Origin: a virus
Taxonomy: Duplodnaviria; Heunggongvirae; Uroviricota; Caudoviricetes
Reading direction: 5' to 3' (one strand)
DNA: 42,975 bases
IMG/VR virus record: IMGVR_UViG_2663763400_000010
The translations under genes and the position numbers were made by a program. Below, in pieces: positions 2,797-42,975 of the stretch. Each line of letters opens with the position of its first letter. Position 1 is the stretch's first letter. Below the pieces are notes generated by a model. That model was not told the origin of the DNA and made no database searches. It was given only the letters and a program-made list of their open reading frames with translations.

Positions 2797-3044
2797 ATGC
2801 GTATTGAGATCTCCATAGCCAAAGACAAAATGACCAAATGCCAAACGGCGCTGTGGACGCGTTAAAGGAAGAATTAACCCAACACATTGGCAAGCGTTAT
2901 GACGATGTGGAGATGATCGTAAAAGCCACCAGCAACGATAGTTTTTCAGTTAGACATACTGCAGATAAAGATTGAGCTAAAACTTTCGTTCAGGAAACTC
3001 TGAATGATACCTGAGAGTCTACTGAAGAGTTGTTTGTTCACTAG
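2797..3044 (+). pseudogene. dinI-like gene, apparently disrupted (frameshift in an A-run plus two in-frame TGA codons)
   Basis: Frame A encodes [14 protein letters not shown] then stops; the +1 frame continues [71 protein letters not shown]. Together these resemble DinI (MRIEVTIAK...IDAL...LQETWES). Short enough to be missing from the ORF track. Confidence 0.5.
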
Positions 3045-3399
3045 TTAGCACGTAGGAAATCATTCAATACTCGCACTATCGGAAGTTCACCAGCCAGTCG
3101 TAGCACGTCCTTGCAAACGACGTGCCTACGGTTTCAATCACCTCTCACCATCAATTCTATCAATAATAATTAAACAGCGCCTAGACAAAATAAATAACAA
3201 CAAGTCAACAACCTCGACAGGATGCCGATGGGATGATGAAGAGATAAGAAAGAATAACCAGTAAAGCCCTAAAACGTCAGCGTTCAGACGCGTTTTTTAC
3301 TTAATCGGTAACAAATACGTTGTATCATAGCAAAATAAAATGATTGTTCTAAATCAGATTAACTCCTCACTTTTGTACAATGTCGCTTACAGGTATACC

Positions 3400-3699
3400 A
3401 TGAAATCCGAGACGCTAACTGTCCAACAACTTTTTCAAGACCGCCGACAATACTGTGTTCCATTCTATCAACGTGCCTATGTATGGACTCAGCAAGACCA
3501 GTGGTCAGCTCTACTGGAGGATATCCTAGAGAAAGTACAATCCCGGCTCTCGGGTACAAAACCAACTCCCCATTTCCTTGGTGCGGTTGTACTGGAACCT
3601 CAATCAAAAAAAGGATTATTAGGTGTAGATTCCATACATATTATTGATGGTCAGCAACGATTGACCACTCTTCAATATGTTCTGGCATCCATCCGATTA
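3400..3699 (+). pseudogene. GmrSD-family type IV restriction-like gene, N-terminal fragment (DUF262-type), truncated by IS2
   Basis: Contains FYQRAYVW and [11 protein letters not shown] (DGQQR) motifs of the DUF262/ParB-like domain. ATG at 3400 preferred over the ORF track start at 3340. The frame runs straight into the IS2 left end, where a stop is supplied by the IS. Confidence 0.65.
3695..3699. repeat. IS2 target site duplication, left copy (GATTA)
   Basis: Identical 5-bp GATTA directly abuts both IS2 ends (3695-3699 and 5031-5035). Confidence 0.8.
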
Positions 3700-3790
3700 T
3701 AGACTGGCCCCCTGAATCTCCAGACAACCAATATCACTTAAATAAGTGATAGTCTTAATACTAGTTTTTAGACTAGTCATTGGAGAACAG

Positions 3791-4156
3791 ATGATTGATG
3801 TCTTAGGGCCGGAGAAACGCAGACGGCGTACTACACAGGAAAAGATCGCTATCGTTCAGCAGAGCTTTGAACCGGGAATGACGGTCTCCCTTGTTGCCCG
3901 GCAACATGGTGTGGCAGCCAGCCAGCTATTTCTCTGGCGTAAGCAATACCAGGAGGGAAGTCTTACTGCTGTGGCTGCCGGAGAACAGGTCGTTCCTGCC
4001 TCTGAACTTGCTGCCGCCATGAAGCAGATTAAAGAACTCCAGCGTCTGCTCGGCAAAAAAACGATGGAAAATGAACTCCTTAAAGAAGCCGTTGAATATG
4101 GGCGAGCAAAAAAGTGGATAGCGCACGCGCCCTTATTGCCCGGGGATGGGGAGTAA
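3791..4156 (+). CDS. insC: IS2 transposase OrfA (InsC)
   Basis: [41 protein letters not shown]..., 121 aa, HTH transposase OrfA. ATG at 3791 rather than the upstream alternative start in the ORF track. Confidence 0.85.
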
Positions 4157-5019
4157 GCTTCGTCAGCCGTTGTCTCCGGGTGTCGCGTGCGCAGTTGCAC
4201 GTCATTCTCAGACGAGCCGATGACTGGAAGGACGGCCGCCGCAGCCGTCACACGGATGATACGGATGTGCTTCGCCGTATACACCATGTTATCGGAGAGC
4301 TACCCACATATGGTTATCGTCGGGTATGGGCGCTGCTTCGCAGACAAACAGAACTTGATGGTATGCCTGCGATCAATGCCAAACGTGTTTACCGGATCAT
4401 GCGCCAGAATGCGCTGTTGCTTGAGCGAAAACCCGCTGTACCGCCATCGAAACGGGCACATACCGGCAGAGTGGCTGTGAAAGAAAGTAATCAGCGATGG
4501 TGCTCTGACGGGTTTGAGTTCCGCTGTGATAACGGAGAAAAACTGCGGGTCACGTTCGCGCTGGACTGCTGTGACCGTGAGGCACTGCACTGGGCGGTCA
4601 CAACGGGTGGCTTCGACAGTGAAACAGTACAGGACGTCATGCTGGGAGCAGTGGAACGCCGCTTTGGCAGCGAGCTTCCGGCGTCTCCAGTGGAGTGGCT
4701 GACGGATAATGGTTCATGCTACCGGGCGAATGAAACACGTCAGTTCGCCAGGATGTTGGGACTTGAACCGAAGAACACGGCAGTGCGGAGTCCGGAGAGT
4801 AACGGAATAGCAGAGAGCTTCGTGAAAACGATAAAGCGTGACTACATAAGTATCATGCCCAAACCAGACGGGTTAACGGCAGCAAAGAACCTTGCAGAGG
4901 CGTTCGAGCATTATAACGAATGGCATCCGCATAGTGCGCTGGGTTATCGCTCGCCACGGGAATATCTGCGGCAGTGGGCCAGTGATGGGTTAAGTGATAA
5001 CAGGTGTCTGGAAATATAG
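4114..5019 (+). CDS. insD: IS2 transposase OrfB (InsD), DDE catalytic domain; made as OrfAB fusion by -1 frameshift
   Basis: 301-aa ORF overlapping insC in the -1 frame; A-AAA-AAG heptamer at about 4108-4114. Confidence 0.85.
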
Positions 5020-5030
5020 GGGCAAATCCA

Positions 5031-5035
5031 GATTA
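5031..5035. repeat. IS2 target site duplication, right copy (GATTA)
   Basis: See left copy. Confidence 0.8.
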
Positions 5036-6625
5036 GCATTACGTGCTACGGATCTTTCCAGCTTAGAGGCTCTCATTTCGCCTTGCCTGAAAAACTCAAA
5101 CGAAGACACAATGCGAAATAAAGAAGTAGAACGCTTCAAACTGTGGCCAACTTTTCGGGATCAAACTCATTTTATTCAAAGTTTTAATGTTGAAAATATT
5201 GACGATCTCCGGGACGTATTCTCTGATAGTTTCACGCAGCATGGTACGTTGCGTAAGCATTTTAATCACCCGCCATCACTAGAAGCATTATGTTTTTTTA
5301 CTGAAGCCTTTATAAAATGGATTAAAATAGAAAACCACTCACCACAAGAAAATGCTGTAGCTCTAATTGAGGCTGTCTTAACAGATCTGAAACTGGTAAG
5401 CATATTTCTCGAAGCTGAAGATGATGCCCAAATAATTTTTGAAACATTAAATGGGCGAGGGGCGGAACTTCATGCTACGGATCTTATTCGCAACTATATC
5501 TTTATGTGCGCTGAGCATGAAAATATTAATGCTATTGAATTATATGAAAATGAGTGGAAGAGCTTTGAAGATAAATACTGGTCGGAAAAACAACGCCGTG
5601 GACGTATTAATAAACCACGCATGGAGTGGCTAGTACATGCGACATTGCAATCAGAAAGGCAACGTGAAATTGATCTGTCTCGCCTTTACAATGAGTATCG
5701 TGATTATGTAAGTAAGGACTTGTCTTCACAACGAGCAGATCTGCAAGTAAAGCGCCTCAAACAATATGCATCACAATATAAAGAATTGGTTGATGGTTTT
5801 GGCACAACCCCCATCTCACACTTTGGATATCGCATCGCAGACTATGATGTGACGACACTTTATCCGCTTGCTTTGTTCATTTCGATAGCTAACATCGCTG
5901 ATGATGAGAAAGCAGCCATGTATAATGATCTTGTCTCCTACGTAGTACGAAGAGCCGTATGTGGCCTGACGCCAAAGAATTACAACAATGTATTTATGAA
6001 TGTATTGCGGCACTTGGCTAAAACGGAAATTTCCAGTGTTGAGTTACGTAATATCCTCAATAACTTAAATGGCGAAGCCTCACGTTGGCCTGGTGACTCA
6101 GAATTTCTCAACGCTTGCATCAATGCTCCACTTTATCCTGGCAGGCTCGACGCACCGAAAATGCGCTCAATGTTAACGGAACTTGAAAGAGAACTTTGTC
6201 GCCAAGTAAAGACAGAAAAGCCTGATGTTCCAAATCTTTCTAATCTCGATATCGATCATCTTATGCCTCAAAGTTGGTATTCCTGTTGGCCTCTCGAAAA
6301 TGGTCGTATGGTGACAAATTCAGATGCTACGGTATTGAACCAAATTGTTCTGTCTGGAACCGATCTTACCCCTGAACAGCTACTGGTAAGGAAACGGCAA
6401 CAAGCGATATCTACTTTGGGAAATCTAACTTTGCTTAACCTTAGCGTAAACCGTTCTGTTCAGAATGCTGTATTTCTGAAAAAACGTGATGCTCTCATCG
6501 TCCACACCAATCTACGACTGAACATTCCACTTATAGTTAAGGATAAATGGGATGAGGATGAAATCCTGGAGCGGGGTAAAAAGTTGGGGGAAATTGCATT
6601 GAAAGTATGGCCAAAACACGATTAA
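5036..6625 (+). pseudogene. GmrSD-family type IV restriction-like gene, C-terminal fragment (DUF1524/HNH-like), downstream of IS2
   Basis: Same frame as the N-terminal fragment once IS2 and one GATTA copy are removed (...ASIRL | ALRATDLSS...). C-terminal region has LDIDHLMPQSW ... NLTLLNLSVNRS, the His-Me finger-like motif of DUF1524. The ORF track start at 4994 lies inside IS2 and is an artefact. Confidence 0.65.
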
Positions 6626-25993: not shown

Positions 25994-26109
25994 TCCTGGT
26001 TAAATTTCATTTTTCGCGGGTATAAAAAAACGATGGGGCGGGCAGTCCGGAAGACGTCAGGTCACAGGGATTTGACCCGCCCCTCCCCTCAGAAAGTTGA
26101 GAATTATTA

Positions 26110-26460
26110 TCACTTCAGTCGTTCACGGGCCGTCTTCGCCTTATGACACGGCCAGCACAGGCTCTGCAGATTGCAGTCTGCATCAGTGCCGCCATGCGCT
26201 TTAGGGATGATGTGGTCAACGGTTTTCGCCTCACGCACCACACCGACATGCAGGCACAACTGACACAGGCCTTTGTCACGCTTCAGCACGCGCGCGCGGA
26301 TAACATCCCACTTCGAACCGTAGCCGCGCTGGTGACGGGATTGTCCTGGCTTGTATTGTTTCCAGCCTTCGCTTTTGTGGCTTTCACAATAGCCTGACGG
26401 ATCAGTGGTGGTTTGGCGGCAGCCGCGAACGCGGCAGGCTTTTGGGGTTCGTGGGGGCAT
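26110..26460 (-). CDS. HNH endonuclease (packaging-associated)
   Basis: C-x2-C ... VDHIIPKAHGGTDADCNLQSLCWPCHKAK: HNH motif; sits upstream of the terminase genes as in HK97-type cos phages. Confidence 0.8.
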   Translation of the reverse strand: MPPRTPKACRVRGCRQTTTDPSGYCESHKSEGWKQYKPGQSRHQRGYGSKWDVIRARVLKRDKGLCQLCLHVGVVREAKTVDHIIPKAHGGTDADCNLQSLCWPCHKAKTARERLK

Positions 26461-26562
26461 TTAAAGTGGGATCTAACTCTAATAATTTAAAAAATTTAAT
26501 TGGGTCTTGATATTAATCACATAGACTCAATGCTCTTTAGTTCTTACATAGGTGGTTGTATT

Positions 26563-26730
26563 ATGAGTATCCCCAGTTTAGATGTTCATAAAGTTGTTAA
26601 GTGCGCAGAGCATAAAAAGGCTTTAGATGCAATATCTCTCAAACTTAAGAATAACATTATTGACTCAAGCTCTGAATACGATTTTCTTGGCGACACAATA
26701 ATTTTCAATAAAGATAAAAAAATAGGTTAA
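26563..26730 (+). CDS. hypothetical small protein (AT-rich moron)
   Basis: ORF from the ATG for MSIPSLDV...; very low GC; no recognisable motif. Confidence 0.3.
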   Translation: MSIPSLDVHKVVKCAEHKKALDAISLKLKNNIIDSSSEYDFLGDTIIFNKDKKIG

Positions 26731-27108
26731 CCCTCAAACTTTCAACATATGAACTAGAACTTATTTTCAAAGAAACACTGCTAGTCATTGATGAAGCTCC
26801 TGTATTGAAGTTTGCTGCCATTGACCCAACCGATGAAAATAACAACGAGCTGATTGATTTATTTTTATCCAAAGGTGGATTTATTTATATTAGAGAATAC
26901 AAATCCGAGCCACATTATGAGTATGGCGACACTTCTCTATTTTTACATATACTTGACGCTACTCTTAAAGAGCTTAAATCTGCAAACAAAATATCCTATT
27001 AAATAAATTTTTGCTAACATAGCCCCGCGCCATGACAAGATTTTCTGTTCTAGATGCAAGGGCTATGTGTGAATATCTATAAACAAAAACCCCATCCGGT
27101 GATTTTTG

Positions 27109-27360
27109 TCATTTTTTAGCCATCTCAATTGCGGCATCAAAAAGTCGTTCAAGAATAAAATCAGGGTACTGTAATTTTTCTTGCTCGATATGAAGCTCAT
27201 AAATTTTCCCTTCCCACTCCCATTTAAAATTAAATCCAGAAGCAGAAGGTGCGAAATGTGTTTTAGCTTTAGGGTTAGCGTAACCAGCAACAGTCAACAC
27301 ATCAAACTTAAAATCTTGAGGTTTAATACGCATAATCATATCCTTTGCCAAGTTCATCAT
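27109..27360 (-). CDS. hypothetical small protein (AT-rich moron)
   Basis: 83 aa; low GC; sits between the spanin gene and the packaging region. Confidence 0.4.
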   Translation of the reverse strand: MMNLAKDMIMRIKPQDFKFDVLTVAGYANPKAKTHFAPSASGFNFKWEWEGKIYELHIEQEKLQYPDFILERLFDAAIEMAKK

Positions 27361-27430
27361 TATTCTTCGCGATTATAAAACAATGAATAAAATCATTAAA
27401 GCATAGACGTTAAATATCCTCAAAATGTGA

Positions 27431-27868
27431 TTAGTTGGGACATTGCGTCCTGATATACTCCTGCAAGTAATTGACCTGTGAGGTTATCTTGTCGATTCCA
27501 CTTCGGAGACGGTAATAATGGAGTTCAGCATCTGCTGTAAGTCTAGGGCTTTCTCCATCGCCCATGCCGCTGGCTCCGGTCGTTGACTTTGTACAGGTGG
27601 CGGCGACTTGCAGGCGCTTATGCCCAGCAGAAACATCAGCACGAAGACTTTCGATAGTCGCATTAGCATCAGCAAGCTCCTTTGTATATCTGGCATCGAG
27701 TTCAGCTACATTACGTTGACGCTTCTGCATATCAGCGATGATGGATGTGGCTTTATCGCGCTGTACTTTGTAGACGATGGCGTCATCACGGTAATTATCA
27801 ACAGCCCATGACAAGCAGACGATGATGCAGATAACCAGAGCGGATATAATCACCGTTACTCTGCTCAT
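27431..27868 (-). CDS. i-spanin (Rz-like)
   Basis: N-terminal membrane anchor [17 protein letters not shown] then coiled-coil; directly after the endolysin gene. Confidence 0.75.
27484..27669 (-). CDS. o-spanin lipoprotein (Rz1-like) embedded in the +1 frame of Rz
   Basis: Signal peptide with lipobox LLGISAC followed by a Pro-rich stretch ([16 protein letters not shown]); fully nested in the spanin gene. Confidence 0.6.
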
Positions 27869-28341
27869 ACCTGAATCTCTTTGACCGTTCCGCCGGCTTC
27901 TTTGAATTTTGCAATCAGGCTGTCAGCCTTATGCTCAAACTGACCATAACCAGCTCCCGGCAGTGAAGCCCAGATATTGCTGCAACGGTCGATAGCCTGA
28001 CGAATATCACCGCGATCAATCATCGGTAAAGCACCACGCTCTTTAATCTGCTGCAGTGCAACAGCATCCTGGCTTTTTGGAGAGAAGTCTTTCAGTCCAA
28101 GCTGTTTACGGTATGCATCCCACCAGCGGGAAAGAAGCTGGTAGCGCCCGGCAGCCGTTGATTTGAGTTTTGGGTTTAGCGTGACAAGTCTGCGAGGGTG
28201 ATCGGAGTAATCAGTGAATATTTCTCCGCCCACAATGACGTCATAACCATGATTACGTGTCGGTTGTAGCCCATTATCCGTTCCTTCTGACCAGGCCACC
28301 ATATCGAGGAAAGCTTTACGCTGAGGATTAAGATTTTGCAT
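27865..28341 (-). CDS. endolysin, lambda R-like lytic transglycosylase
   Basis: [20 protein letters not shown]...[10 protein letters not shown]...DYSDHPR is near-identical to recalled lambda R. Confidence 0.9.
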
Positions 28342-28633
28342 TTTTCACCCCTGTCAGTCGTTCCCAGAAGTACGTCAGTGCAACCGAACCCATCGCACCA
28401 CTAATCCCCGCAGTTGCGAGAATCATGTAAATACTGAATCCACTTTCGATACTGATTAGGCCACCAATAACACCGGTGAATCCTGATACAACTATCTGAG
28501 CGAGGGCATTTATCCAGCTCCACGTTGCTTTACTCTGCTTCACATCAATCAGGTAACGGACAAGCCCCCCCCAACCTGCGATGATCAGCAAAACAAGCCA
28601 GAACGCTCCGGCAAGATTCTCTTTTTCGTGCAT
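28328..28633 (-). CDS. holin
   Basis: About 100 aa with hydrophobic helices, immediately upstream of the endolysin; ATG at 28633 preferred over the long ORF-track extension. Confidence 0.6.
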   Translation of the reverse strand: MHEKENLAGAFWLVLLIIAGWGGLVRYLIDVKQSKATWSWINALAQIVVSGFTGVIGGLISIESGFSIYMILATAGISGAMGSVALTYFWERLTGVKNAKS

Positions 28634-28784
28634 ATGAATAGCCGCAGTTTCGCCTCCGACAGAAAATCGGAGCGTGAAATGATATGTTGATTTATTATTA
28701 ATTCGAAAATTACATTCTAATTCATCAGGCATTGATGATTTTATAATAATAAAGGCCGTTCGTTACGGCCTTTATTATTGATAT

Positions 28785-29120
28785 TTATTTTACATCCCAA
28801 GGTAGTTCCTCAAGAGAGAAGACTAATTCATTATCAATAATTTCGTATTCTGCATAACCTTCAACCTCTCCTGAGAAGTTATTGTCAACGCATCCTTCAT
28901 AATAGCTATATGGTGCTATAAAGTGAAACCCATATTCATCTATCTCTGTGATTTCAAAATTGTAGTAATCGTAAGAATATCGAATATCATCATCAGAAAT
29001 AGAACTAAGTACATAGTTATTAAATTTATCGGAATGCTTAACGATAAGTTCTGACAACGCGTCAAGATTCTCTGGAGAGATATTTCCTAACGGTAATCTG
29101 TACTCAACGGCATTAATCAT
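28785..29120 (-). CDS. acidic hypothetical protein (moron between Q and holin)
   Basis: 111 aa, very low GC, Asp/Glu/Tyr-rich; lies directly downstream of a tR-prime-like terminator. Confidence 0.5.
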   Translation of the reverse strand: MINAVEYRLPLGNISPENLDALSELIVKHSDKFNNYVLSSISDDDIRYSYDYYNFEITEIDEYGFHFIAPYSYYEGCVDNNFSGEVEGYAEYEIIDNELVFSLEELPWDVK

Positions 29121-29172
29121 ACAACCTCCTTTTTAACTGATATGAGGTTATATAATGTGTTTCAGTACAAGT

Positions 29173-29200
29173 AAATAAAAACCCGCTCAACAGCGGGTTC
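29173..29200 (-). terminator. tR-prime-like intrinsic terminator downstream of the Q gene
   Basis: Minus strand reads CCCGCTGTTGAGCGGG followed by TTTTTATTT; location matches the lambdoid late-terminator position. Confidence 0.5.
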
Positions 29201-29305
29201 GTGAAAATTATCAACGGCAGACATACAAAGCCCATCGTTGAGAAAATCTTATCCATATTTTTTGAAAAATGCAAGCTTCATGTCACTATCTTCGGCGAAA
29301 ATCAC

Positions 29306-30058
29306 TTATCTCGTCACCTTTCTCAATTGTGTTTCAGCATATGCTTCTTCCTGCCAGCACTTTGTTACTAGTTTATCAATTACGTCTGCATATCCTTTGT
29401 ACCACTGATAATCAGTCAGGTCTGGAACCAGCTTCTGGACATGACGTCGTGCCAGTGTAGTCGGTAAACGGCTAAACCGGTTTCCATTGCAACGCCCACA
29501 AGTCTTATAAACAGGCGTGCCATGAAGCCGGGTTCTTTTTTCATCCAGGACAATACCTTTACCCTTACACCCTCTGCACGCCGTGCTGACTTCTCCCTTG
29601 CCATGACAATGCTGACACAGTTCCTTCACCCACTCTTCTTTGATAACGGATTCCCCGCTTCTGGAATGTTTCACCACTTCGCGCAATACATTATGAAATC
29701 CAGTACCAGTACAATGCTCACAGCGAGCCTTACTTGCCGCAGACCTGGAATAATCAGCAAAGGCAAAATTCACAAGGTAAGGGATGATCTGTAACCGGGT
29801 TTCTTCACTCAATTTGTTCAATGTCGGGTTATCCAGTGCCATCGCGTAATTGAGCAGGCCTTCAATCGCAAACTGAGGATCCTGAACACCAACTTTTGCC
29901 AGGAATAAGGCAAACCCAAGCGGTGCTTTCGACTGCACCATCCCCTGCGCAGCCATTACATCCGTAATTGTTAAACCACCCGAGCCTGTCGCCGATGCGT
30001 CATCGCTCAATTTTGGAGATTTTGGGGAGTAATATTTCGGTAAGGCTTCAAGGTTCAT
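29306..30058 (-). CDS. antitermination protein Q-like
   Basis: Several CxxC zinc-finger pairs (CEHCTGTG, CQHCHGKG, CRGCKGKG, CGRCNG); directly upstream of the lysis cassette. ATG at 30058 has a GGAG ribosome-binding site. Confidence 0.65.
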   Translation of the reverse strand: MNLEALPKYYSPKSPKLSDDASATGSGGLTITDVMAAQGMVQSKAPLGFALFLAKVGVQDPQFAIEGLLNYAMALDNPTLNKLSEETRLQIIPYLVNFAFADYSRSAASKARCEHCTGTGFHNVLREVVKHSRSGESVIKEEWVKELCQHCHGKGEVSTACRGCKGKGIVLDEKRTRLHGTPVYKTCGRCNGNRFSRLPTTLARRHVQKLVPDLTDYQWYKGYADVIDKLVTKCWQEEAYAETQLRKVTR

Positions 30059-30071
30059 GCTCGTTCTCCAC

Positions 30072-31067
30072 TTACACCAGTACGCCAATTGCCAGCGCAC
30101 GATCGATAAAACGAAATATCAGCTCCAGCTGGGAGCCATACATCTCTTCAAATGCCACGGTATCCGCATGCAGCTCGTCGTGATGCTTTCTGCACAAAGG
30201 CAACACAAAAAGGTCATGCGCTTTTGTACCCATTCCACCCTGTCCGTGGCCTATCAGGTGGTGGGGATCATCAGCGGGCTTTCCACAACATGCACACGAC
30301 TGTGTCTTAACCCAGCGCGTGTACTTTTCATTAACCCAGCGGCGACGTTTTGGGCGTAACATAAAAGACTCCGGCGACTCCGGATCCACTTTCAGCGCCA
30401 GCACCTTTTTCGCCTTATCCTGGATGATGCTGGTGGCAGGAACCGAAGGCACAAGGTCACTTTCCCGGGTGACAGACGGCACAACAGGCTTCGGTAATCT
30501 CAGTGCCTTACGGGCTGCACTTTCCGGTAAGGCATCCGCCAGATCATTACGAACCAGCCACCAGCACAGTTCCGGCATTGTCACAACGTGACTGTCATCA
30601 AAACCGAGATCCCGACGCACAACAGACAACACCCAGCGGGCACAGTTATCCGTTGCCATTGATTCCAGCCGTTCCGTGAACTGATCGCGAAGCAGGTTAT
30701 CGCAGTGCCAGCACAGACGGATTGCGCCCGGCGCGTGTCGCATTGTGGTCATGTTCTCGCTGTGCCATCCGGAATGAGGCCACTGACAGCCCTTTTCACG
30801 AAGTAACCAGCTTTCAAGACATTCCACACCCCCCGCACGACGAATAACTGCCTCATTGCGGAACACGGCCCGAATGGCAGGATCATCCGCCAGCGGTTGT
30901 GATGCCGCCGGAACGGCACCACTGGCAAAAGATGAATAACGTTCCGGCTCAGGCTCCAGCAGGACACGCCCCTGCATAAACAGGGGCATCAGCTCTGAAC
31001 CGGGCCTGAACAATACGATCCCCATACGCGGGGCAATTTCAGGGGTCAGTAGTGCTCTCACGGTCAC
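30072..31067 (-). CDS. DUF968-like protein with C-terminal HNH-like zinc motif
   Basis: C-terminus CACCGKPADDPHHLIGHGQGGMGTKAHDLFVLPLCRKHHDELH. Confidence 0.55.
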   Translation of the reverse strand: MTVRALLTPEIAPRMGIVLFRPGSELMPLFMQGRVLLEPEPERYSSFASGAVPAASQPLADDPAIRAVFRNEAVIRRAGGVECLESWLLREKGCQWPHSGWHSENMTTMRHAPGAIRLCWHCDNLLRDQFTERLESMATDNCARWVLSVVRRDLGFDDSHVVTMPELCWWLVRNDLADALPESAARKALRLPKPVVPSVTRESDLVPSVPATSIIQDKAKKVLALKVDPESPESFMLRPKRRRWVNEKYTRWVKTQSCACCGKPADDPHHLIGHGQGGMGTKAHDLFVLPLCRKHHDELHADTVAFEEMYGSQLELIFRFIDRALAIGVLV

Positions 31068-40896: not shown

Positions 40897-42029
40897 CAAT
40901 CAGGAAACACCACCAGGGAGAAACGATCAATATAACTTTCACCTACAAAGGAGTTAGATGTCGTGAGCCGCTTTCCAATCTGGAAGTAACACCAAAGAAC
41001 ATTAAATACGCCGAGCGTACACTCGGCGAAATCCATAATAAGATCGAAAGGGGAACATTCATTTATGCAGAATATTTTCCCCGTTCTGCTCGTTTGAAAA
41101 TTTTTGGTAATGCTGCTGCAAGCAAAACGGTAAAGATGTACCTGGACGAATATCTTGAAATCTGCGAAACAAGAAAACTTTCACCCTCTACGATTGGTGG
41201 CTATAAAAAATGCCGTAGTGCGTTAGCCTCACTTCACATTTGCCCTGCAAGTGAATTAACACCAGCAACCCTGAAAGCGTGGATTCAAAGCCAGAAAACA
41301 ACCTTAAAAACCATTCGCAACCAGTTATCTTTCCTACGGTCAGCACTTGATGAAGCCGTGACCGATGGGGTACTTCAAATTAACCCCGTATCGTTAGTAA
41401 CAGCTTCGCGCTACCAAAGTGATAAGTCAGAAGCAGAAAGCAGCTATGTGGTTGATCCGCTATCACCAGCAGAAGTTGATGCATTACTAGCAGCAGCCGG
41501 AAACAAACAATGGGAAAATCTGTTCCGGTTCGCCATACATACAGGCCTGCGTAGTTCTGAATTATGTGCCCTACGATGGCATGATATCGACTTTGTTGGA
41601 AAAACAGCCCATGTTCAGAGCGCAAGTGTTGTCGGAGTTATCAAAGGAACAAAGACAAAAGCCGGTACCCGTAAAGTTGAACTGACTGAAGAAGCAATGT
41701 TGGCGTTGATAAACCAGAAGCCATTTACATTCATGAAGGATGCTACTGTCTTTGAAGATCCAAAGACCAATAAACCCTGGGCAAGTGCTGATGCAATTAG
41801 GAAAAAAGCATGGGTGCCAACATTGCGAAAAGCAGGTATTCGTTACAGAAACCCATATCAAACCAGGCATACATTCGCCACCAGCCATATCAGCCGGGGA
41901 GCAAACCTGTTTTGGCTTGCGGCTCAAATGGGCCATAAAGGGCCTGAAATGTTATTCAGGCACTATGGACAATACTTGAAAGAGTATGATGGGAGGGCAA
42001 GTATCAAGGATAAAAAGGCTTTATTTTAA
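40857..42029 (+). CDS. int: tyrosine integrase (phage integrase family)
   Basis: 390 aa; C-terminal catalytic region with ...RHTFATSHISRGANLFWLAAQMGHKGPEMLFRHYGQY (R...H..R...Y) and an N-terminal arm-binding-like domain. Confidence 0.85.
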   Translation: MGQTKLLKLPRGVTIRKHHQGETINITFTYKGVRCREPLSNLEVTPKNIKYAERTLGEIHNKIERGTFIYAEYFPRSARLKIFGNAAASKTVKMYLDEYLEICETRKLSPSTIGGYKKCRSALASLHICPASELTPATLKAWIQSQKTTLKTIRNQLSFLRSALDEAVTDGVLQINPVSLVTASRYQSDKSEAESSYVVDPLSPAEVDALLAAAGNKQWENLFRFAIHTGLRSSELCALRWHDIDFVGKTAHVQSASVVGVIKGTKTKAGTRKVELTEEAMLALINQKPFTFMKDATVFEDPKTNKPWASADAIRKKAWVPTLRKAGIRYRNPYQTRHTFATSHISRGANLFWLAAQMGHKGPEMLFRHYGQYLKEYDGRASIKDKKALF

Positions 42030-42620
42030 GTCATTATGCCAATCGTCTACTGTTTGAAACCAAATTTTTAACCTTTGCATAAAGGTACGATCCTTTTTGG
42101 GAGGGTGGTACCTTTGAAAAGAAGTATGTAACGCTTCGATAACTCCCATACAAGCATCAATTACTTCTTGTGCTTTAACCGGGCGATCGGCATCTGAAAG
42201 CTTGTGAGCGACCTCACAATCCAGAGTTGCTTTCTCTAGTACAGATGAGAACACCTCGTCAGGTATATACAGTCCTCTGCTTTCCAAAATGCAAATCAGT
42301 TTGGAAACTTGTTGAGCTTTAGCCAAGATAGTTAACAAGTATGAAACAGAAGCCTTTGTTCTATCCTTTTGCAACCTTAACAATCGATGCTTTGATGCTC
42401 TAATTTTAGGTTGAGTTGTCTGACTGAGCCAATAGTTAGAAGAAATATCAGAAATTTCAATAACTAACTTTGAAATAGCATCAATAATTGATTTCGATTC
42501 AGAACGTGTCGCCAGTTTTACAGAATTATTGTACGCAACTCGCCATCCAATGAAAACTAAGCAGACGCTAACTACTGTGATACACCACGAATACTGTCCT
42601 ATTTGTGCTACTAATGACAT
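42021..42620 (-). CDS. hypothetical protein with one N-terminal transmembrane helix
   Basis: ATG at 42620 (MSLVAQIGQYSWCITVVSVCLVFIGW...) preferred over TTG at 42638; convergent with int; low GC. Confidence 0.4.
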   Translation of the reverse strand: MSLVAQIGQYSWCITVVSVCLVFIGWRVAYNNSVKLATRSESKSIIDAISKLVIEISDISSNYWLSQTTQPKIRASKHRLLRLQKDRTKASVSYLLTILAKAQQVSKLICILESRGLYIPDEVFSSVLEKATLDCEVAHKLSDADRPVKAQEVIDACMGVIEALHTSFQRYHPPKKDRTFMQRLKIWFQTVDDWHNDLK

Positions 42621-42648
42621 TGGTTCCGTACTGATCAACTATCGCCTC

Positions 42649-42975
42649 TTATACTCTTTCTGGTTGTGCTAAATCAATAAATTTATCAATCTGTTCTTTG
42701 TAGAACGGAACATCACTTTTTATAATCAAACGTGCTTTAACGTTGGCTTTAGGTATCCCTTCCTTACGGATGAGACCTCCAAACGCCTCTTCTAAGAAAG
42801 AGGAACCAACACCCAGTGCTATACCGCGAAAATCAACCACAATCTCCTGTTCAGTACCCTTCAGCGCAGGCACCAAAAACTCTCTACGAAATCTTTCCGC
42901 ACTGTGTGGGCTATCCGTTGTGTAACGTCCGAAAGGTGTTCTGGAGAACTCCTTCGCTATGACGATATTTCTCAT
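42649..42975 (-). CDS. hypothetical protein; N-terminus may lie beyond the window edge
   Basis: ORF runs to the last base of the window; tandem with 42021-42620 on the same strand. Confidence 0.35.
   Translation of the reverse strand: MRNIVIAKEFSRTPFGRYTTDSPHSAERFRREFLVPALKGTEQEIVVDFRGIALGVGSSFLEEAFGGLIRKEGIPKANVKARLIIKSDVPFYKEQIDKFIDLAQPERV

Follow-up and report, generated by a model that had tools for sequence, protein, structure and literature searches.

A probable, uncharacterised moron encoding a small acidic protein in the Q-to-holin slot of a lambdoid prophage

Results

A bounded cassette at the Q-to-holin junction

We analyzed a viral sequence of 42,975 nt (IMG/VR record IMGVR_UViG_2663763400_000010, Caudoviricetes; this whole stretch is hereafter called the window), and within it a minus-strand open reading frame (ORF) of 111 aa that occupies the slot between the late antiterminator gene Q and the holin gene. 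The window corresponds to positions 2899093-2942067 of the Escherichia coli UTI89 chromosome: a 551-bp segment taken for comparison showed 100% identity, and the ORFs of the window agree in position with the RefSeq genes of UTI89. The complete-looking prophage adjoins ssrA and combines a lambda-like early and regulatory region with a contractile tail. On the minus strand, the gene order is DUF968, Q, a 185-nt gap, the 111-aa ORF, a 151-nt gap, holin, GH24 endolysin, and Rz/Rz1.

The ORF (28785..29120) starts with ATG, is preceded by AGGAGG at 29130-29125, and encodes 24 Asp+Glu against 5 Lys+Arg, along with 12 Tyr, for an isoelectric point of 4.05 and a net charge of -19. Its GC content is 0.33 (0.29 at third codon positions) against 0.497 for the window, and homologous cassettes range from 0.33 to 0.40. 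An earlier description based on the DNA letters (hereafter the sequence-only reading) had singled out this ORF as acidic and AT-rich, which these values bear out. Comparison with the Salmonella and Citrobacter copies, which are 69–72% identical, indicates that the ORF is a genuine gene, kept by purifying selection, and no chance reading frame, because synonymous sites are saturated (synonymous differences, pS, ~0.8) while non-synonymous differences (pN) stay at 0.17–0.19; the ratio of non-synonymous to synonymous substitution rates (dN/dS) was 0.28 and 0.12 for the two measurable pairs.

The cassette has sharp borders. Directly 3' of the ORF stop codon lies a hairpin (28744-28780) that the sequence-only reading did not include and that is stronger than the one behind Q, with -20.2 and -21.1 kcal/mol on the two strands (z = -7.6 and -6.5). 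The E. coli, Salmonella, and Citrobacter cassettes are homologous at the DNA level from the hairpin and T-run behind Q up to this second hairpin, and the flanking Q genes (PF03589 vs DUF1133/PF06530) and lysis cassettes are unrelated. Most family members carry a downstream terminator hairpin, the sequence of which differs between members.

Upstream of the ribosome-binding site, the cassette also contains a candidate promoter. In the close subfamily, a -35-like TTTACT (29175-29170) is separated by a 17-nt spacer from a -10-like TATAAC (29152-29147), and four diverged cassettes all keep TTTAC(T/A), a spacer of 17 nt that varies in sequence, and TATAAC. Invariant bases among these four are concentrated in the hexamers (11/12, vs 8/17 in the spacer; Fisher p = 0.016), indels are confined to the region downstream of the -10 box, and the hexamers are kept although synonymous sites are saturated between the copies. 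The motif GGAGGTT is likewise kept in all four close cassettes. Because its -10 box ends in C, this candidate was not called by a consensus promoter scan. The upstream block of the distant subfamily consists of an A-rich tract, T(T/C)TG(A/G)CA, a fixed 15-nt spacer, and TAnnnT; across 10 distinct sequences, the TG of the -35 box and the T, A, and T of the -10 box are invariant, and the inner -10 bases differ. A sigma-54 or sigma-E promoter was rejected as an interpretation of this kind of conserved block, as neither the spacing nor the key bases fit.

Late promoter and terminator upstream of the cassette

Past the end of Q, the window carries a -35 box TTGCAT (29274-29269), a 17-nt spacer, and a -10 box TAAGAT (29251-29246), followed at 29242-29231 by CTCAACGATGGG, which is identical to the initial transcribed region of lambda; the lambda pR' counterpart reads TTGACT, 17 nt, TAAATT, and then CTCAACGATGGG. 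In lambda, the initial transcribed region contains the pause element at which Q is loaded. Some 40–65 nt downstream of the expected pR' start, a terminator scan returned, on the minus strand, the stem-loop GAACCCGCTGTTGAGCGGGTTT at 29200-29179, followed by TTATTTAC, with a folding energy of -15.4 kcal/mol and z = -3.9 (0 of 200 shuffled sequences were as stable). Because it lies downstream of a lambda-pR'-like promoter and because the SfV annotation labels the same hairpin as a terminator, we identify this hairpin, from its sequence context, as the late terminator tR', in agreement with the sequence-only reading, which had described a tR'-like hairpin and T-run after Q.

From 95 nt before the end of Q through the promoter and the hairpin, the window is ~90% identical to SfV, mEp460, and Shiga toxin (Stx) phages of the Stx2c and Stx2k types, and homology to SfV and the Stx phages stops within the T-run, at 29177. 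Past this terminator, orf47 and a DNA methylase gene follow in SfV, and the annotation of the Stx2k phage lists transfer RNA (tRNA) genes and stx2AB. In Stx phages, stx lies between Q and the lysis genes, under the control of pR' (PMC8065619). The earlier proposal that this slot is the one that holds the toxin genes in Stx phages is thus literally true for the Q module found here.

The pR'-tR' interval (29175-29245, minus strand) would itself be expected to give a constitutive, terminated leader RNA of ~60–65 nt, and the equivalent by-product in Stx phages is a regulatory small RNA in lysogens (PMC8065619). No significant Rfam RNA family was found within window positions 26000-30500. Separately, small TrmB/MarR-like winged-helix genes occupy the Q-to-holin slot in a Citrobacter prophage (L020:4678-4869) and in the Stx2k phage (L013:4501-4722), which hints at regulatory cargo.

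Conservation and position of the gene family

The sequence-only reading had regarded absence or disruption of the ORF in all related prophages as evidence against it; the ORF is intact at ≥99% identity in 132 of 5426 complete E. coli genomes. Named carriers are the extraintestinal pathogenic strains UTI89, S88, IHE3034, NU14, and APEC O18, along with the type strain ATCC 11775, and the exact ORF sequence is present on at least 1000 public contigs. The corresponding protein, WP_000606308.1, is annotated only as "hypothetical protein", and a literature search by protein accession, locus tags, and the UTI89 prophage returned nothing on this gene.

At E ≤ 1e-3, an exhaustive profile search returned 26 representatives from the library, which was clustered at 50% identity; most of these are ~110 aa long and 28–45% identical, and none is annotated. 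Among the profile matches, P0019 and P0029, which are long repeat proteins, and P0005, a chimeric protein, were set aside as spurious or uninformative. The 111-aa protein matches the PHROG 13663 profile over its full length (residues 1–111 of 111, E 9.4e-54), and all 25 aligned relatives match PHROG 13663 only, a small Enterobacterales family. Neither the single protein nor the 25-sequence profile had a significant match to Pfam, NCBIfam, PADLOC, or PDB sequences. None of 50,697 deposited phage genomes encodes the protein (tblastn), members coming instead from prophages and viral contigs, and a scan of species-representative genomes gave Erwinia tracheiphila as the sole match.

The position of the gene is highly consistent. 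In 33 of 33 IMG/VR viral-contig loci, it follows a Q gene and precedes lysis genes in the same orientation, and the Q-to-holin position recurs in prophages of Salmonella, Citrobacter, Enterobacter, and Duffyella. The accompanying Q genes fall into four or five lineages and the lysis cassettes into three or more sets that are unrelated to one another (LydA-type with GH24; holin_8/holin_3_7 with GH19; holin_2 with phage lysozyme). In some phages, the gene directly precedes an N6/N4 DNA methyltransferase within the same slot. The E. tracheiphila copy lies inside a decayed prophage. Two remote family members stand alone in bacterial chromosomes, in low-GC islets that have no phage gene up to 5 kb away. 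Neighborhoods of the stand-alone and decayed-prophage copies have no homologous partner gene or informative Pfam domain in common, and no toxin gene adjoins a family member in any of the ~50 loci examined. As a separate observation, one Citrobacter prophage (L007:2181-3275) encodes, on the opposite strand in its early region and ~3 kb upstream of the cassette, a 364-aa protein with the pore-forming colicin domain PF01024.

The holin gene downstream is also found, at 93.5% nucleotide identity, in ~880 other E. coli genomes, with homology from window position 28665. In the two of these that were examined (O157:H7 and O25:H4 prophages), a lambda-type Q and the holin gene downstream of it are separated by 321 nt that contain no gene. 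As the same holin is found behind an empty slot, genome comparison indicates that the 111-aa gene is dispensable for the LydA-type lysis cassette.

Predicted fold, charge, and conserved residues

An AlphaFold2 model based on the 25-sequence alignment predicts a single domain with the topology beta-alpha-alpha-beta5 (predicted local distance difference test, pLDDT, 86.7; predicted template modeling score, pTM, 0.77), and a separate model of a 36%-identical member, made with its own alignment, has the same topology at pLDDT 81. This predicted fold weakly resembles a cystatin/NTF2-like alpha+beta roll: structural comparison with such proteins gave 3–15% identity and scores at the level of fold resemblance, and Foldseek returned no match at E < 1e-3. 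The likeness to VirB8/TraE, NTF2-like proteins, cystatins, and latexin is thus one of fold only, and concerns a predicted model. The homology and structure prediction suggested in the sequence-only reading hence delivered a defined family, PHROG 13663, and a model, and neither a functional family nor a close structural match.

All 44 members have a net charge between -8 and -22, and the richness in Tyr is not kept. Conserved positions are Phe33, Asp45, Tyr48, Phe55, Gly76, Cys77, Asp104, Glu105, and Trp108; Cys77 is invariant in 43 members, and Asp45, Tyr48, Gly76, Asp104, Glu105, and Trp108 are ≥90% conserved. No signal peptide or hydrophobic or membrane segment is visible in the protein sequence, and the role of a late-expressed effector, taken to mean a secreted one, is therefore unlikely and was rejected. 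The other role suggested in the sequence-only reading, an immunity or inhibitor protein, is plausible from the family-wide acidity and the weak cystatin/NTF2-like fold, although searches of PDB and BFVD gave no structural match to Ocr, ArdA, Ugi, an anti-CRISPR, or other known mimics.

Features of the region and neighboring genes

The features between Q and the holin gene are collected in Table 1.

Table 1 Features of the Q-to-holin region, in window coordinates
Feature	Position	Strand	Evidence
Late antiterminator Q, 250 aa, PF03589 and DnaJ-type zinc finger	29306..30058	-	Pfam E 2.7e-54, PHROG 127
Late promoter pR'	29231..29274	-	Alignment with lambda pR'; kept in SfV and Stx2k phage
tR'-type intrinsic terminator, 9-bp GC-rich stem, 4-nt loop, T-run	29171..29200	-	Terminator scan, folding, SfV annotation
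Candidate cassette promoter	29147..29175	-	Comparison of four diverged cassettes
Shine-Dalgarno AGGAGG, 4 nt before ATG	29125..29130	-	Sequence reading
111-aa acidic protein, WP_000606308.1, PHROG 13663	28785..29120	-	ORF, profile match, selection, AlphaFold2 model
Bidirectional intrinsic terminator, 15-16 bp stem, closing the cassette	28744..28780	both	Terminator scan, folding
AT-rich spacer particular to the prophage type, from cassette terminator to shared holin module	28666..28743	-	Homology of ~880 E. coli genomes
Holin, LydA-type, PF16083, first gene of the lysis cassette	28328..28633	-	Pfam/PHROG matches, RefSeq annotation

In the mechanical ORF list, the holin ORF can be extended to 134 aa from an ATG at 28732 (region 28634-28732, minus strand). 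Because homology with other genomes begins only at 28665, the longer form is probably an artifact, and we keep the annotated start at 28633, which gives 101 aa. In the holin_8-type lysis cassettes (L002, L014, L023, L041-L049), a conserved inverted repeat CCCCTC...GAGGGGG lies 40–90 nt past the cassette terminator, directly upstream of the holin start codon, and may be a translational control structure.

A second AT-rich island (window 26450-27400, GC 0.32–0.37) lies directly after Rz/Rz1 and includes a gene for a 75-aa hypothetical protein (WP_001220676.1; 27109-27333, minus strand) with no NCBIfam or PADLOC match. This gene is probably another moron, as it is located where lambda carries bor. 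At the prophage edges (window 2911-6625 and 42021-42975), genes for a LEM-3-like GIY-YIG protein and a 630-aa DUF262 protein, and a STAS-like protein and a 199-aa hypothetical protein beside the integrase, are possible defense cargo. Finally, NZ_CP081716.1, recorded as a circular 37.7-kb "plasmid" of E. coli CX04, is the entire genome of a related phage and carries the same gene at 99.5% identity, which suggests that this prophage type is able to excise and circularize.

Discussion

The anatomy of this cassette, its conservation, its position, and its dispensability fit an uncharacterised moron in the Q-S slot, i.e., an ordinary prophage add-on and no new kind of system. It is inserted between conserved genes, deviates in base composition, and brings its own terminator, as do morons, a class of elements reportedly defined by Hendrix and colleagues. 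Like the classical morons of lambdoid phages (lambda bor and lom, and those of HK97/HK022; lambdoid morons are described in PMC8065619), it represents extra DNA between conserved phage genes that is absent from close relatives, with deviant base composition and a flanking putative promoter and terminator. Unlike them, the PHROG 13663 family is tied to one slot, and yet is also found outside prophages. Similarly, the cassette resembles stx-type cargo in its slot and orientation, with pR'-tR' upstream and the lysis genes downstream, and it has the Q end, promoter, and terminator in common with Stx2c and Stx2k phages. However, the 111-aa product is no toxin, the cassette includes no signal peptide, AB5 subunits, or tRNA genes, and it forms one unit of 0.5 kb that has a terminator, and probably also a constitutive promoter, of its own.

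We tentatively propose, with a confidence somewhat short of even, that this is a self-contained moron with its own promoter and terminator, two routes of transcription, and an acidic product of the inhibitor or immunity type. In a lambdoid prophage of E. coli of the sequence type 95 (ST95) kind, the T-run of tR' would be the precise insertion point, past Q and ahead of the lysis genes, of a unit in which the 111-aa gene is preceded by a promoter-like -35/-10 pair with a strong ribosome-binding site and followed by a strong terminator of its own. In the lysogen, transcription would start from the sigma-70-type promoter of the cassette and stop at the cassette terminator, so that the holin would be kept silent. 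Upon induction, Q-modified polymerase coming from pR' would pass tR', transcribe the gene, and continue past the second terminator into the lysis genes, and this read-through would lead to a burst of expression, as for stx in phages with the same Q module.

We infer promoter activity and expression in the lysogen, beside Q read-through, from the promoter-like boxes, the private terminator, and the stand-alone chromosomal copies. The terminator would be useful only against polymerase without the Q modification, which would imply transcription by such polymerase. The sequence-only reading had the gene expressed only on induction; autonomous transcription combined with Q read-through appears to fit better with the conserved boxes, the terminator, and the stand-alone homologues.

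The product itself would be a cytoplasmic, strongly acidic, single-domain alpha+beta protein of cystatin/NTF2-like fold, unneeded for lysis or lytic growth and no part of the late-gene machinery. It may stoichiometrically bind and block a basic, likely nucleic-acid-binding protein, whether from the host, a competitor, or an incoming phage, and so act as an inhibitor, immunity, or decoy protein. Its charge, size, fold class, and cargo status point weakly to such a binding or inhibitor function. By analogy, the protein may be compared with colicin and contact-dependent inhibition (CDI) immunity proteins and with DNA mimics such as Ocr, Ugi, and ArdA, which it resembles in size, cytoplasmic location, and strong net negative charge, and small acidic inhibitors of this kind may share their working principle with it. 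They differ, however, in that no sequence or structure similarity connects them to the 111-aa protein, the gene of which lies in a late rather than an early or leading region. A bolder version, which we consider distinctly unlikely as a whole, would make PHROG 13663 a new prophage-borne family of cytoplasmic inhibitors: acidic mimics of nucleic-acid or protein surfaces on a cystatin/NTF2-like scaffold, with a conserved Cys/Asp/Tyr/Trp contact site, a conserved basic target (such as a nuclease toxin, a defense nuclease, or a protein of a superinfecting phage), and low expression in the lysogen from their own promoter followed by a Q-dependent burst.

Several points weigh against the proposal of a self-contained inhibitor moron. 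The case for promoter activity is one of sequence footprints only: the -10 box of the close subfamily ends in C, the 15-bp spacer of the distant subfamily is unusually short, and the -35-like box overlaps the T-run and may be conserved for termination instead. On the side of function, sequence and structure searches gave no homology to known inhibitor, immunity, or DNA-mimic families: the protein belongs to no Pfam or NCBIfam immunity family and has no sequence or structure similarity to Ocr, ArdA, Ugi, Arn, or acidic anti-CRISPRs, and neither a toxin nor another conserved partner gene stands beside the gene. Cys77, together with Asp45, Tyr48, Asp104, Glu105, and Trp108, could be a catalytic or ligand-binding site. 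Finally, the 33 of 33 viral-contig loci and the examined genomic prophage loci all keep the gene in the Q-holin slot, which could mean that late expression matters, although the gene order conserved among lambdoid phages would lead one to expect a fixed slot just as well.

This fixed slot also speaks for the strongest alternative, in which the gene is strictly Q-dependent, as in the sequence-only reading, the boxes form no working promoter, and the product serves the phage in lytic growth or in the next infection, for instance as an acidic DNA-mimic anti-restriction or anti-defense protein made late beside orphan methylases. The gene is indeed the first one after pR'-tR', on the same strand, and it stays between Q and the lysis genes across four to five Q lineages. 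The methyltransferase directly behind it in some phages and its strong acidity, which is typical of DNA mimics, would also be consistent with this scenario, as would the dependence of Stx-phage cargo in this slot on pR' and Q (PMC8065619). Yet a terminator-resistant polymerase needs neither conserved promoter-like boxes nor a strong private terminator, the stand-alone chromosomal homologues have no Q or pR', and the searches of PDB and BFVD returned none of the known mimics. Anti-defense genes of temperate phages, moreover, are usually located in early regions. Overall, we regard strict Q-dependence as unlikely, if credible.

The conserved residues raise another alternative, namely that the protein is a small enzyme or ligand-binding protein whose cystatin/NTF2-like cone, with a pocket of Asp45, Arg47, Tyr48, Cys77, Asp79, Asp104/Glu105, and Trp108, binds or modifies a small molecule, e.g., by sequestering a signaling nucleotide or metabolite. 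The invariance of Cys77 and the near-invariance of most of its putative partners speak for such a pocket, but no known sponge protein or enzyme was matched, and a small-molecule role would leave the family-wide negative charge unexplained, so that we hold this alternative to be improbable. A role as a cytoplasmic antiholin or lysis-timing factor, which the location immediately upstream of the holin gene in most prophage copies might suggest, is largely excluded and very improbable, given the at least three unrelated holin/endolysin sets beside the gene with no single holin family associated with it, the empty slot before the same holin among the ~880 genomes, the absence of a membrane segment, the stand-alone chromosomal copies, and the methylase between the gene and the holin in some phages.

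The Q-to-holin slot is the site of Shiga toxin in lambdoid phages, and other conserved cargo located there may affect the fitness or virulence of the lysogen. The gene described here is borne by the major extraintestinal pathogenic lineage and yet is without annotation, Pfam family, or structural relative, and identification of its partner could reveal a new inhibitor, immunity, or defense activity. The cassette also offers a compact case of how a private promoter and terminator, if the candidate promoter is active, may be nested within a Q-controlled operon without triggering lysis.
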